From NCBI GenBank assembly GCA_035221665.1, contig CM069154.1, forward strand, positions 992,001-1,056,000: 64,000 nucleotides of DNA. Direction: 5' to 3'. Below the pieces are notes generated by a model. It made no database searches. It had not been told where the DNA came from and was given only the letters and a program-made list of their open reading frames with translations. A program made the translations under genes and the position numbers. The stretch comes from Okamejei kenojei (lineage: Eukaryota). Of this stretch, positions 13,446 to 59,107 are shown in pieces; within the stretch, counting starts at the first letter, position 1, and every line of letters begins with the position of its first letter.

Positions 13446-14477
13446 TGTTTAAGACTTCCCTCTAAGTTTTTGACCATACCTTGATATCATGTTACACTGC
13501 CTCAATATCATAAGACAAATTAATAAAACGCATTTGTTTTATGTAAACCACATGAAGCAGCTGGGATATTTTATTCAAGCTATGTGTCGTCATCTTTAAT
13601 AAAGATAGGAAATGCTGGAAATACCTGGCGATCAGGAAGCAGCAGTGGAGAGACAGTCAATGCTTCAGGTCATTGACCTTACAAAGATCATTGAACTTAA
13701 ACAACGATCCCTTGCCACAGGCACCATGCTGATTATTTACACCATTTGTAGATTGTTTTGATTTACCATCGTTCTCGCTCAATGGGCCATGCTGCGAACG
13801 TTTGCTAATTGGTTTGCAGCCCAACGTGGCAAACTTACCTGGTTCTGATCCCGAGTGAATGATGCCTGGATCCAATCAAGCAAGACCCTTGTGCACCATT
13901 ATCAGGTTAGGTGACAGAGCCAAAGCTCTGCCCAGGAACCCAATAAGATGACATTTGCCAGATGCCAAAGTCACCCCCCCCCCCCCACCCCCACAAAGCG
14001 TTGCTGTCGAAGCTGAAATTTAAACGCATTCAAAAGTTGTTAAAATTAAACATTTTAAAAAGGTAAAAAATGGATAATTCCAACATAAAAATAATTAAAA
14101 AAACATAGCTCATTCTTGCACTTTGATTGCAGCTGTATCATCTGTGATGAAACAAATAGACTTGTGGAGCTTGCTCAGAGCCTAACCTGGAGCAGAATCC
14201 GCTAGCATATTCTTCAGCTCATGTGCTGGGAAATCTCACCAAACATGTACCAACGTTGGACTCCTTGCAGAGTCCAGCAGCAGAATCAAGGACGGGTCAC
14301 ACCCTGGCCACTCCCCCCCCCCCCCCCCCCCCCCCCCCTAGGCAAAAGGTATAGAAGTGTGAAAACACACACCACCAGATTCAGGGACAGTTTCTTCCCA
14401 GGCAACTGAGTTATTCTGCCACAACCAGAGAGCAGTGCTGAACTACTATCTACCTCTTTGGTGATGCTCGGACTATC

Positions 14478-17400
14478 TGTAGATTGGTTACATTACTTAC
14501 TAACCAATGCAGAGCTTTATTAATATTGGGTTCGCGTACTACCACACATTCATGTTATCGCAAGCCGACATGTGCTGTTAGTTGGTGATGCAGCACGGTA
14601 GGTAGAACTAACAGTGTGTGTAGTGTGTTGTATACGTTACTGTTGTATCAGATCCGTGAGTATGTGAGATTTACTAAACATGGTGTCAGAAGTGGGATCT
14701 GCCAGATTGAGATTTTGGCTTCACGGACAGAAAACAGAGACACTGCCGAGCTGAGCAGCAACTTCCCCCACCATGCGCATCGGGTAGTGCGGGCGTTGAC
14801 ATCTGAGATTCACAACACCATTAAGATTACAGCTGATTCCAAGGTCTCCATTCCAATGCTTCCCGGTCGAGGAACAGACAGTGAAGTAAAAGTGACCATG
14901 ACTTGGTAAGGGGGAGGGGGAAACAACTCGGCAGTCAACCAATGTGTTTGCCTACCTGCCACATCAGTGAATCCGTCCAGAAACTGGTGGAACTGGTTTA
15001 TCAGACACTTTCAGAGGTTACAAGTGCTTCACCTGAATGTGCTGTGCAGTTGTTCCACACTGTTAGAAACAGGGTCCACTTGTACTGTGATGTTCTTCCG
15101 ACATATCAAACGGAGACGCTGCAGAAGTTGCTTCCCATCGACTAACAAGTTTGCAGAGATTCCTGGGAATGGTTAACTACTTTGGGAAATTCATTCCCAA
15201 CCTCAGCGAAATATCAGCCCCCCTGCGACATCTGATTCACAAAGACACTGCATGGTCTTGGTACCCATGACACCAGAGGGCGTTCGAAATCCTTAAATTA
15301 CAATTGTCCAGCGCTCCTACCTTCGCTTATTTTGATTTAAAACTACCGGTGACATTTCGTGTGATACCTCCCAATATGGACTTGGAGCTGCTTGCCTCCA
15401 GAATTCTGTCGAGGGAGACTGCAGACCTCTTGCTTACGCCTCCCGCATCTTGTCTGAGACGGAACAGCGAAACGCCCAGATCGAAAAGGAATTACTAGCT
15501 GTGGTTTTTGCCTGTACAAAAGTCAAGGACTTTGTTTTTGGGAAGCCCGTGATTGTTGAAACAGACAACCAGCCTTTGGTCACTATTCTGAACAAACCCA
15601 TTCATGCTGCTCCTACTCGCCTGCAACGGATGATGATGCAGCTAGAGAATTTCGATTTCACACTAGTCTACAAAAGGGGCAAGGACATGCATCTGGCTGA
15701 CACGCTATGAAGAGCCCCACGAAAAACCTGCGACCAACAACTGTCAGAAAATGACCAGTTCACATTAATGATGGTGTCGTACATTCCTACAGAATGCCTA
15801 AGCTACCTAGCAGAGCAAACGGCTGAATTCCTACAGAATGCCTAAGCTACCTAGCAGAGCAAACGGCTGAATATACAACTGTCTTCAGTCATCCGGCGTG
15901 GCTGGCTGGATAAACAATATCGCGCACCACTTCCTATTCGCCTATATTACCTGCTCTGCGACGAACTGGTGCTGCAGGACGGTGTCACAAGGCAGTTATC
16001 CCAAATGCCCTACAGGACAAATATTTTGATGCCGTCCACAGGAGCCACCCCGACGTGGAAGCAACCATACTCCGAACAAAGAGCATGTTTTTCTGGCCCA
16101 GAATGACCAAATTCGTGCGTGGGAAAGTTAAAGCCTGTGCTATCTGCAACAGCCTAATGCCAACAGAAGCAGCCCCTGCTCTCACATCCTGTTCCTCCTC
16201 TGCCTTGGTCCACGGTTGTTACTGACACATTCGAGTGGCGTGGCAAACAGTATCTGGTTCTCGTTGACAAGCATTCGGGCTGGTTCGTAATCGACCTGCT
16301 CCAAAGCCCATCATCCGCTGCAGGAATCCACAAGCTGGCACGCCATTTTGCTGTACACCGTGCCCCCACACGCCTCGTCAGATAACAGCAGTCAGTTCAC
16401 TAGCCAGTGTTTTAAAAACTTTGCTCAACGATGGGACGTTCGCCACGTCACCAGCAGTCCAGAATTCCCACAATCAAACGGACCTGCAGAACGAGCTGTC
16501 AGGAACGCCAAGCAATTGATGGAGCGCTCACAACTTGCTAAATCCGGTATCTACCTGGACCTGATGAACATCGCCCGCCTCCCAATACTGAGGTCTCCTG
16601 CCCAACGCCTGATGTCCCGACAGACCCGTGCTGCACTGCCTGTGTCCCAACAACTACTGCACCCACAGGTTTGTTCACCACTTGCTGTCCAGAAACACTC
16701 CAACTGAAACGCGATACCCAAAAGCGATGTTTTGATAAATGAAGCAAACCACTTACACCTCTCTCCAGTGGCCAAGTTGTTTGCCTTAAAACCAACAAGG
16801 ACTATGGCCGTTTGGGTTACGTCCACAGTCGCGCAAAAGAGCCGCGCTCATACTGTTGAGCGCAGACGGAGGGATCTACAGACGCAACCGTCAACAACTC
16901 CTTCCTACTGTCTCGTATCCTGATGCGACACGTCCGATCTACCCATCTACTGACGGACTTTCTCTTCCCTCACGCCATGCAGCTGGAGACCCACCCCTGG
17001 TTGTGTCTCCAGTTCCCTCACCATCAGGCTCGCCTGCCTCGCCATGTTTGTTCCCCGAGTCCCCAGTGCTCCCGCCGCACGGGACCCCAGCATTCTCGCT
17101 GGTGAAGGGAGATGTTGATCTGTACTGTACGCGTGCAGGACAGGTTTGTTGGCCTTAGATACAAGGACTTTGTTTGAACCATCTGAACATCCTTGTAAGC
17201 GCTATCAGCGTTTTGGTTACATTATTAATCAGTCAGCACCTAGTAACATGCTTATACATATATATCACTTCATTGTGGATGTTTCACTTTTTATTCTTAC
17301 AAGGAAAGATGTAGATTGGTTACATTACTTACTATCCAATGTAGTGCTTTATTAATATAGGCTCAGCCTACTTCCACACCATTCATATTATAGCAAGCCG

Positions 17401-17520
17401 ACATGTGATGTTAGTTGGTGATGCAGCACGGTAGAACTAACAGTGTGTGTAATGTGTTGTATACCTTACTCAGTAAATATTGTTGTACCAGATCTGTGAG
17501 TATGTGTGATTTACTCAACA
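14478..17520 (+). mobile_element. Gypsy-like LTR retrotransposon, internally deleted and degenerate
   Basis: TG...CA LTRs at 14478-14680 and 17310-17520; 5-bp TSD CTATC (14473-14477, 17521-17525); PBS TGGTGTCAGAAGTGGGAT (14681-14698, complementary to the tRNA-Leu 3' end); PPT AAGGAAAGA. Pol remnants in Gypsy order: LQRFLGMVNYFGKFIPN, RNase H (AQIEKELLAVVFAC...ETDNQPL), integrase (PWSTVVTD, DNSSQF, PQSNGPAERAVR). Confidence 0.95.
14790..15135 (+). pseudogene. ZW10: Intronless ZW10-like fragment inside the LTR element
   Basis: TSEIHNTIKITADSKVSIPMLP and, after a frameshift, [61 protein letters not shown]. Both match recalled vertebrate ZW10 ([22 protein letters not shown]...[21 protein letters not shown]...[31 protein letters not shown]). 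Confidence 0.88.
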
Positions 17521-19807
17521 CTATCCTTGATCGGACTTTCCTGGCTTTACCTTGCACTAAACGATATTCCCGTATCACATATCTATACACTGTAAATTGT
17601 TTGATTGTAATCAATTCTGCTGACTGGTTAGCATGTAAGAAAAGCTTTTCACTGCACGTTCAATAAACTAAACTGTGTCTTTCCGCTGAAACTCTTATCC
17701 ATATAGAGCCTGCTTGTAAGTTTGCACTTACACATATACTTTTATTCTTTGAGTCTGAATCTACTTTTATTTACCCACAAGATTCAGCTCATCATCTTTA
17801 ATTAAAAGGCCGTGTAAATGTTCTTGCAAAATGTCCTGGTCCAGAGCCAAGGCCATTGCAATCATATTAATGTTCTTATATTCAAAACAACCAAGCAAAC
17901 AAATTTCACGCACACTAACTAAATATCAAAACCAGAGCCAAATGAGTAGCACTGAAAGACATATATAAATAAAAAAGCAACCTGCAATGTAAGCTCACAA
18001 TCTCTCCATTGTTCTTAGCTAATCTGCTGAGGGATTCCTGCGTAGTTTAGTTGAGAGATACAGCGCAGGAACAAGCCCTTCGGCCCACCCAGTCACCCAT
18101 TCCTTCTCTCCACAGATGTTGCCTGTCCTGAGTTACTCCAGCATTTTGTGTATATCTTTGGTCTCTAAACAACTGTGCCAAGTACACCTTGCCCACTTAG
18201 AAATAAAACATGTTTGAATTATTTAGAATTTGAAAACTAATTGCATTCATAAATAATTCAGTTGGCTTTCACAATTAACTATAAGCACCTGTTAAATCAT
18301 TTATATCATGTGCGTGAGATAACTAGCTTGATGTAATCCTTTGATCCAATGACACCGTAGACAAAATACTTCCGTTTCCACTTTAAGCCCAAATCTTGAA
18401 CTCATTTTCCCAGTATGTCTCAGTAATAACTTCTGTTTCTGTTTGTATAGCACAGTTGACATCAGTACATTGAGGCACTTCACAAAAGCTTGTAGAAAGA
18501 AGCCATGAAGAATAAGAAACCCAAAACTGGACTAAAAATGATTTTGATGAGGTTTTAAAGGGTGGGGTGAGCTTTTTAACGGTGAGTAAATTAATCATCA
18601 TGGTGTAACAATCAGAATGATAGATGGAAGCAGCAAGGACACAGGCCTTTCAACCATCAACAATCAATTTACAATAATCCTTCATTAATTCCATCTTAAT
18701 CTTCTAACATTTTATCAACTCCCTCAGATTCTACCACCCACCTATATGTTAAGGGTAATTTACAGTAGCAAGTTAATTTATCAACCCTTTGGGGCTGTGG
18801 AAAGAAATCAGACATTGTCACAGAGAGAACATGCAAACTCCACAAAATAGTAGAAATGGGGATTAAATTTGGTTCTCTGATGCTGTGGCTCAACTAGTCG
18901 TACCACTGTGCTGCCCAATCTGTTAAGACTAGACATAACTTAGTTCTCAGACATTGTATTTAAGTGGCAATTGTATTTATGCCTTTGGGTATCATATTCT
19001 TAAAATATTAGAACTAATTACACAAAAGTAATTTAAAATTCCAAGTTATCAATACTAAACAATAAATCAATTCTAAATAATTATGTTTAAAATCACCATC
19101 CCTCAGTTTATGAAACACCAATATAGCAGTTATCCTGATTCAAGTAATCATTGATTTTTCCTCTTTTAGACAGTAACATGTAAAGTTTAATGCCAAACAA
19201 GGATCATTCTGAAGACATGCAAATACATTAGTAAGCAAAAATTAAACTGCTTAAAGACATAACAAGTGAAAATAGTTCCCTGTCCACAATGCATGAAACC
19301 CTTACCCAACTAAAGTTTATCTACTGAACCATAAAACCCTTTTGAAGCTACATGTAGAAATGATTGGCACAAAATGGTATTAAATGCATTCACTAACCCA
19401 CTGCCAAATATATTGATCTTTGCTTGGCATATCTGCTAATTTTAATCTTCACATGTACATGAAGTATTAAAAATATCTAATTGTACACCAAATCATTAAA
19501 TTATAGAATTCAAAAACATGTAGCTTTAACTGATACATCTTAATTCACATTTATATTATAAACCAAATAAATCTGATCACTGGTGGCAATATGCAGTTGA
19601 CACATTACTAACTGCAACCTTGCTTTCAGTTTGACGTAAAAACTTAGTTGCAATTTTGTGATTTCCTGTAAAACCATACTAGGGTCAACATGGTTGCATT
19701 GGCATGTGAGCTTGTGAGTTCTTGGGGATGTTACAAGCTGCAGCACTTGCTCAAGATTTTCCTTATGCTGTTTTTCATAAGAGCATTAACATATAAGACT
19801 GCTCCGT

Positions 19808-24353: not shown

Positions 24354-25057
24354 TCACACTTCTCCAAAGTTAGTGTGTCCAGTCTCCTTTGCATGCTCCC
24401 TTGCTTCTATCTGACCCACCAAGCCCTTTTGGCAGACTATGCAACGCAGTGTGAACCTGTTCAGATCAGTAAATTGCCGTTTTCTTCTAGCTTCATCTCC
24501 CAACTCCAATGCTTCTGCAAGTACAACATCATCAGCTGTTGAGAAGATGGTTTGTGGTGGGCTCTCAGGATCTTCAAATTGTCGTTCTATTGGGTCATAG
24601 TGGATTCCGTCATAAATCAGAAGCACACGCTTTGTGTAGCTTACATCCTCTCCAAACCTGTCTATCCGCACTGTCTGCGTATCCACCACACAGATCTCAC
24701 ACCGGTAAAACTTGGATAGAATGGAGATTTCAATGGCCCCTCCCCATGTGTCATTCTGGCAAATCCAATTGCAGTAGTCCAAATTACTTTTTCCCAGTAC
24801 TGCTTCTGTGTATGACTCTGGGTCACTGGCCACAATCTGAGCTATCAGGTTTCGCATTTCCGGGGCACAGGTTGGCTCACAAACACCACCTTCAACCACG
24901 TAGTGAATGCTTGTGAACAGACATGAATTATCTGCAGGGACAACGTGTCGAGTCAGTTGTGGGAAAGCATTCTTATCCGAACTTTCAGCACCAAGCTTTG
25001 AGATGGAGGCTTTAGCTTTCATTACATCTCTTTCCTCTTCCACAATTAAAGTATCAC
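24354..25057 (-). CDS. YOD1: YOD1/OTU1 deubiquitinase, last coding exon (OTU domain + C2H2 zinc finger)
   Basis: ADNSCLF catalytic Cys motif, WGGAIE, YDGIHYD His motif, C-terminal CIVC...[13 protein letters not shown] zinc finger. Acceptor ttttttccag|GT GAT ACT (exon starts 25057); TGA stop ends at 24354. Confidence 0.97.
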
Positions 25058-25773
25058 CTGGAAAAAATAATTAATATAACCTACTTCCTTACTTCATAAT
25101 TAGGTTAATAATGGTTATCAATAAAATTACAAGGAATAAACAAAGAAACAGACCTTTCACACCAAGTTGTCTAAGTCAACATTCTTTACTTTAGGCTCTT
25201 GCTCATTTAATCCCACCAGTACAAACCTACTTTCCATTCCCATGCCTTTTCCTAGTTTGTGCCTAAATATTTCCACACTATTGAACTCAGCCACTCTATG
25301 GTAGAGCATTACATTCTTGCTCACTATACTTGGGATAAAGAGATATCAAATATGGGCTGATGCCTCACCCCCACCAACCCCCAACCCCCATATGTTCTTT
25401 CACAGAAGTGAAAACAACTTTAATCAAAACATTTCAGAACTTTATGCACTAAATGTGTTGACCAAGGATAAACTCCAACGTTGTCATGAAACTTGCTGAC
25501 TGGGAGATGCACTAATATTAAGCTTGCATCTCCCCACGCAAACAATGGAGAACCAACACCTGTCCTCTTTCTCCCCATCAACCAGAGACCCAATCATTGG
25601 CAGATGAAGTAGCAGATCTCAGCCTCTGATATATCAATGCAGATTGGCTGATCGCTTTCGTGAACATCTCCGTTCAGTTTCGACTGACTTTCTCTTGCCT
25701 CTTGCTCTGAATAACATAAAGCAGTGCGTACTCTTCATATTTCCTATCTAGACAAGGCCTTTAATACACTTAC

Positions 25774-58759: not shown

Positions 58760-59107
<348 letters not shown>

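Follow-up and report, generated by a model that had tools for sequence, protein, structure and literature searches.

A Ty3/Gypsy element of Okamejei kenojei carrying a spliced ZW10 fragment, and mis-primed plus-strand strong-stop DNA as its probable origin

Within the window, by which we mean the whole stretch of 64,000 nucleotides of Okamejei kenojei DNA that was analysed, a Gypsy element of 3,043 nt occupies positions 14478-17520 and is flanked by a 5-nt target duplication. The element sits in a host repeat, and repeat copies without the element run from 14477 into the sequence after 17525, with loose ends. Two host exons were also recognized: one at 24357-25070 on the minus strand with an OTU1/YOD1-type domain, the element lying about 7 kb beyond it, and one at 58760-59107 on the plus strand with a 6-phosphofructo-2-kinase domain. 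The parts of the element and its flanks are as follows.

14473..14477, no strand: 5′ target-site duplication CTATC, matching the 3′ CTATC; host-repeat contigs are uninterrupted at 14477
14478..14680, plus strand: 5′ LTR, TG...CA, from LTR comparison
14681..14698, plus strand: 18-nt tRNA-type primer-binding sequence (PBS), unlike the native PBS of the family
14699..14797, minus strand: inverted piece of the element's own RT N-half, 99 nt, equal to positions 1992 to 1892 of the sister element L166
14797..14825, plus strand: last 29 nt of ZW10 exon A, host G000:C29:37970353-37970325
14826..15039, plus strand: whole ZW10 exon B, minus 25 nt near 14905 (frameshift), from host-gene alignment
15040..15111, plus strand: whole ZW10 exon C, preceded in the host by a GC-AG intron
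15112..15131, plus strand: first 20 nt of ZW10 exon D, from host-gene alignment
15132..17300, plus strand: decayed RT C-half, RNase H, integrase and 3′ region, L166 position 2359 onward
17301..17309, plus strand: polypurine tract, read from the sequence
17310..17520, plus strand: 3′ LTR, from LTR comparison
17521..17525, no strand: 3′ target-site duplication CTATC, matching the 5′ CTATC

The order of RT, RNase H and integrase, the Gypsy-type domains (PF17917/PF17919, PF17921 and rve in Pfam, with RNase H and integrase decayed) and the absence of env place the element in Ty3/Gypsy, within which its clade is presumably Mag-like. Its two LTRs differ at 18 of 199 aligned positions (about 9%). Two full-length copies, L166 and L171, served as references; L147 was dropped as a reference, being itself rearranged. 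Zinc knuckle and protease motifs were read by eye upstream in L166, and over the RT C-half, RNase H and integrase the full-length sister copy shows 55-59% likeness to K02A2.6-like Ty3/Gypsy polyproteins of fish and marine invertebrates. An internal stretch of about 2,150 nt in L166 is replaced in the window by 434 nt, and the leader, gag, protease and half of RT are absent. The LTRs, target duplication and polypurine tract that the sequence-only reading had called intact are present, but the PBS that it placed beside them is not native to the family. The element also holds a perfect 44-nt tandem duplication at 15783-15870, which is absent from two other samples of organism A and is either a recent polymorphism or an assembly error.

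The replacement consists largely of host sequence. The 335 nt at 14797-15131 lie in the same sense as the element; the frame 14885-15142 matches Pfam ZW10_C (E 2.3e-19), human ZW10 is matched over aa 468-534 (E 1.7e-21), and the closest named proteins are batoid ZW10, at 74-75% identity. Four exons of the host gene on contig C29 of the assembly (G000) are joined exactly at their splice sites, with zero intron bases in the insert; the three introns passed over measure about 0.6, 4.7 and 0.7 kb, and one is of GC-AG type. The proposal from the sequence that a spliced ZW10 mRNA fragment was captured is thus confirmed by three exact exon joins and the Pfam match; the colinear match across exon junctions named as the check was found, and the 340 bp or so that had been read there in element sense with one frameshift correspond to 335 nt with a 25-nt deletion near 14905. 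The fragment is internal and cut at both ends, with neither poly(A) nor a duplication around it, and it substitutes for internal element sequence instead of interrupting the element; these features, the intron-spanning joins and the two LTRs with their outer target duplication are those of an LTR-mediated retrocopy. The open frame of a functional retrogene has been lost through the deletion in exon B, the start codon of the ZW10-bearing stretch disappeared at the 5′ junction, and a stop stands at 15143-15145. The ZW10 piece is inert, and no function is indicated. The microhomology anticipated at both switch points is a weak 1-3 nt at the 5′ junction (chance of at least 3 nt, 0.055) and has no exact counterpart at the 3′ junction, where an adjacent 6/7 likeness was found post hoc; this weakness at both junctions counts against the explanation favoured below.

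The spliced fragment occurs once in the assembly. A DNA search, in which 9 of 9 candidates were scored and which very diverged copies could escape, yielded no other spliced ZW10 copy; a strict first look by protein search of the assembly gave no second one; a pattern search of the assembly returned two places only, the window and the gene; and the insert is absent from the sister element loci screened. A multi-copy non-autonomous family spreading the fragment, which the sequence-only reading had entertained, is supported by none of the DNA, protein and pattern searches. A single copy in an assembly could be an artefact of that assembly, but this reading has next to no probability, being refuted by single contigs, which span both junctions in sequencing runs X6, X8 and X10 and, in X20, the 3′ junction. 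The chimera was present in runs of three organism labels (4 of the 24 listed runs were examined, and the runs are probably DNA): two more samples of organism A have both junctions, with 9 differences in about 580 nt; organism B has both, with 10 differences in 502 nt; and organism C has the 3′ junction, with 20 differences in 330 nt. One assembly copy, and a chimera found under three labels, mean that it is real, old and shared, and not a spreading family.

The donor was not the main ZW10 gene. Exon B of the insert differs from intron-bearing ZW10 duplicates at 23-25 of 214 positions and from the C29 gene at 33 of 214; a further comparison with the duplicates gives 8 of 69, for an overall divergence of 11-12%. 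At six codons insert and duplicates agree on a changed amino acid, whereas the C29 gene has the residue of the outgroups (of all three at five codons and of two at one), and no codon shows the reverse pattern, so that the main gene is rejected as donor. The host ZW10 mRNA that had been named as the source therefore stands, with its origin moved from the main gene to a decaying duplicate lineage, to which sequence comparison assigns it. The main gene has changed as well: in exons A-B it alone differs at several amino acids, the insert and the duplicates having retained the residue of the outgroups. At most about 130 kb separate the gene from the end of C29, and the GC donor of the intron after its exon B (L043:9453 region, G000:C29:37969447-37969452) is retained in the duplicates. 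Intron-bearing ZW10 fragments occur on G000 contigs C952, C374, C308, C859, C27, C1120, C1, C999, C441, C581 and C15, that is, on at least 11 besides C29, mostly unplaced and with long duplications in common.

Exon A was found in no ZW10 duplicate of the assembly, so the donor locus has been lost or is unassembled; its absence counts against the explanation that we prefer. The insert nevertheless proves that a ZW10 duplicate that is now in fragments formerly gave rise to a spliced transcript. Its divergence from the duplicates (11-12%) is not below that between the LTRs (9%), which fits capture at or before integration. Insertion of a ZW10 cDNA into a resident element, whether through LINE machinery or in the repair of a double-strand break, and accompanied by loss of element sequence, would accommodate the weak microhomology at both ends and the LINE RT genes nearby; it is very unlikely, however, given a fragment cut at both ends with neither poly(A) nor a duplication around it, an insert not younger than the LTR pair and the same chimera in three organism labels. 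DNA-level recombination with a pre-existing processed ZW10 pseudogene, for which the many duplicates on at least 11 other contigs might have supplied a partner, is less likely again: the duplicates covering exons B-D retain introns, and searches of the assembly revealed no second spliced copy.

The clue to the route of capture lies upstream of ZW10. In normal copies the 99-nt stretch that follows the PBS in the window is in sense and continuous with the rest of RT, so that the roughly 100 nt between PBS and ZW10, which might be taken for a leader, are inverted RT. Mapped on L166, the window reads LTR, PBS, inverted 1992-1892, ZW10, then sense from 2359. The capture of spliced RNA during reverse transcription put forward by the sequence-only reading holds, with the amendment that the 5′ junction follows an inverted RT piece, apparently primed from a tRNA-copied PBS, and is not a plain minus-strand switch back into a leader.

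The PBS itself separates two kinds of copy. All 15 rows with a native leader have an imperfect PBS that lacks the last tRNA-complement bases, and none of the 15 has the tRNA-type 18-mer. Among the 33 other rows, 31 carry that 18-mer and 2 are of native type with the leader undetected. Progeny of this family thus keep the element's own PBS, as in Ty1/Ty3-type inheritance (15/15 native-leader rows, a genomic pattern), and the window's 18-nt PBS, being different, is read as copied from the tRNA primer and carried on plus-strand strong-stop DNA. We take the primer to be tRNA-Leu and the stop at 18 nt to be the methylated A58 of the tRNA. In a hand count of 100 listed of 136 matches to an LTR end with tRNA-type PBS, the inverted RT start follows in 12, the sequence continues into the tRNA in 56, and the other 32 fall in neither class, with related families mixed in. 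Where sister loci have a longer PBS, it agrees with a tRNA-like T-arm with CCA; a tRNA gene was not found in the 4 loci scanned of 287 matches. At L081, L126, L146-L156 and L028 the PBS reads 10-30 nt further into the tRNA and then jumps to internal or unrelated sequence, and the first position after the 18-mer is a variable base.

The inverted piece begins at an 8-nt sense-strand complement of the PBS end, which is intact in L171, and 27 of 73 mapped copies share one starting base for the junction from PBS to inverted RT. The 73 were chosen by pattern (L061, whose PBS was not matched, is omitted), so these counts are not frequencies. The inverted stretches of the 27 are about 50 to 1,800 nt long, with differing return points, and in L073 and L125 the inverted copy continues through the PBS into U5, which is not expected from plain genomic inversion. 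Other copies show antisense entry elsewhere or a forward jump directly at the end of the PBS. At four entry sites of the same family, mostly 5-8 of 8 positions match the PBS complement, against a background of 3.5% for at least 5; some forward jumps land behind GGGAT or GAT, and others have little or no likeness. By a curious coincidence, position 2359, where sense sequence resumes in the window, borders on a second near-complement to the end of the PBS, of which each copy has 2-5, and L071 has its antisense entry exactly there. Several mis-joined copies have target duplications; among 15 checked copies they are clear in only 4 and match at 4 of 5 positions in a fifth, with several ends decayed or misplaced.

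These copies bear on the main competing account, a classical minus-strand double switch from element to ZW10 and back to element RNA, in which the parent was a transcribed non-autonomous copy already inverted. It is the published route according to the main text of PMC5131818; inverted copies are numerous (37 pattern matches), and the inverted label is somewhat clustered on the tree, with 4-5 of 500 shuffles as low. Such a parent, however, would be without the native leader, and the inverted copies have varying return points and carry unrelated LTRs, with LTR identities of 80 to 99.5%. Their monophyly is rejected (AU p=0.001): on a tree of 232 columns with 16 inverted copies of at least 180 nt and 23 other rows, the label has to change 8 times. 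At 99 nt the piece in the window was too short to be included in this tree, which is also poorly resolved within the window's own subfamily, so that a small inverted subfamily may be the direct parent of the window copy. On balance, we regard the double switch as unlikely.

The arrangement in the window is instead probably the one-off, non-coding product of one faulty round of Ty3/Gypsy reverse transcription, a reading built from sequence, whose steps would have run as follows. The minus strand would have proceeded from the 3′ LTR to mid-RT and left the element at position 2359 to switch to a co-packaged spliced RNA of the ZW10 duplicate, of which about 335 nt would have been copied; the insert lies in element sense, so ZW10 would have been copied by the minus strand, and a strand that left at 2359 would not have got as far as the element's PBS. 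Meanwhile, the first plus-strand strong-stop DNA would end in 18 nt copied from the tRNA, the last bases of which are unmatched by the family's own PBS. This tail may have paired with the 8-nt complement inside RT on plus-sense element RNA and been extended for 99 nt in antisense. Joining of the extended plus strand to the end of the ZW10-bearing minus strand would then give a two-LTR DNA, which integrase would insert with a 5-nt duplication. We speculate that the switch could have been forced by a strong-stop strand gone astray, if it cut or blocked the RNA at 2359. Our best model is that mis-priming of the tRNA-tailed strand is a recurrent error of the family and its relatives, one that would yield inversions, deletions beginning at the PBS end and antisense host-mRNA capture.

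The last of these products is expected because a strong-stop product priming on any complementary RNA would place antisense host mRNA directly behind the PBS, and this prediction was stated before the junction at a second locus, L140 on G000:C5, was inspected. At that locus, which has a different LTR, a spliced p24/TMED fragment lies antisense directly behind a tRNA-type PBS.

L140:2553-3167 (G000:C5:79752912-79753526), antisense: p24/TMED capture, from Pfam and host-gene alignment

The piece is joined across a 6.7-kb intron of a host gene on contig C38, with 93-95% identity, and the C38 sequence beyond the junction is an exact 8-nt complement of the PBS; a TMED paralogue on C11 is without this complement. 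A third TMED exon was not located. A solo LTR of another type, with a 5-nt duplication, later interrupted the capture, and after the capture come a U5, a PBS and a leader of the same type as the solo LTR. The Pfam scan for captures, which can detect only coding ones, covered 68 of 111 listed frames and 25 of 25 further frames and yielded this one capture and one false lead, L113:1103-1306, rejected as a genomic CRIC-domain exon (CNKSR type) with splice sites beside a truncated inverted element. At L069, L117, L136, L148, L151, L153, L155 and L161, unique stretches near the PBS or the inverted piece have no Pfam match and could be non-coding captures or flanking DNA.

Related errors are known from retroviruses. 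Rearrangements and cellular inserts bounded by the PBS have been obtained in vector experiments with avian viruses, and Pulsinelli and Temin in 1991 reportedly described deletions from faulty retroviral strand transfer. Those cases come from single-cycle experiments in which the tRNA copy is inherited, whereas the copies described here are germ-line Gypsy fossils with one recurrent hot spot and antisense products. Yeast Ty1/Ty3 elements keep their own PBS, and their tRNA-tailed first plus-strand product accumulates as a dead end (PMC5371799; PMC7472051). The present family resembles them in keeping its own PBS and in a first plus-strand product bearing a tRNA copy, but its tRNA-tailed products, unlike that dead end, appear to have been mis-primed and integrated.

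LTR-mediated retroposition is already known, and the plus-strand route is the part that appears to be new. In the main text of Tan et al. 2016 (PMC5131818), LTR-mediated retroposition is reported for fly, mosquito, zebrafish, chicken and mouse as well as human, with a model of microsimilarity-driven switching. The window copy is like the retrocopies described there in being partial and spliced, in replacing internal ORFs between two LTRs and in the absence of L1 hallmarks; it differs in a junction that follows inverted RT primed from a tRNA-copied PBS and in a donor that is a decaying duplicate, and the second capture differs in being antisense. That main text uses none of the terms plus-strand, primer binding, inversion or second strand, and its supplements may hold similar junctions; excerpts of PMC3187697 and PMC6894440 do not describe the plus-strand route, and PMC9503663 yielded a single reference, on an unrelated matter. 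A literature search found no ZW10 retrocopy in cartilaginous fish among the matches listed, and no integrated mis-primed strong-stop products in Gypsy elements in a survey that covers older virology thinly.

The value of the finding is mechanistic, in that it indicates how an LTR element can finish a capture after a single switch onto host RNA. We lean towards the view that the tRNA-tailed strong-stop DNA of Ty3/Gypsy elements is more than a dead end and, in families whose PBS mismatches the tRNA tail, roams as a primer over whatever packaged RNA offers a 5-8-nt complement, which would make it a general second route to retrocopies. If so, priming on host mRNA would produce antisense retrocopies, otherwise unfinished sense captures would be rescued, and the products would be findable in any genome by a perfect tRNA-type PBS without the native leader. 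The model leads one to expect antisense retrocopies that stand under an LTR promoter and might give rise to silencing RNAs directed at host genes, and with a searchable signature it becomes possible to test from genomes alone what happens to the 'dead-end' strong-stop DNA of Ty3/Gypsy elements.
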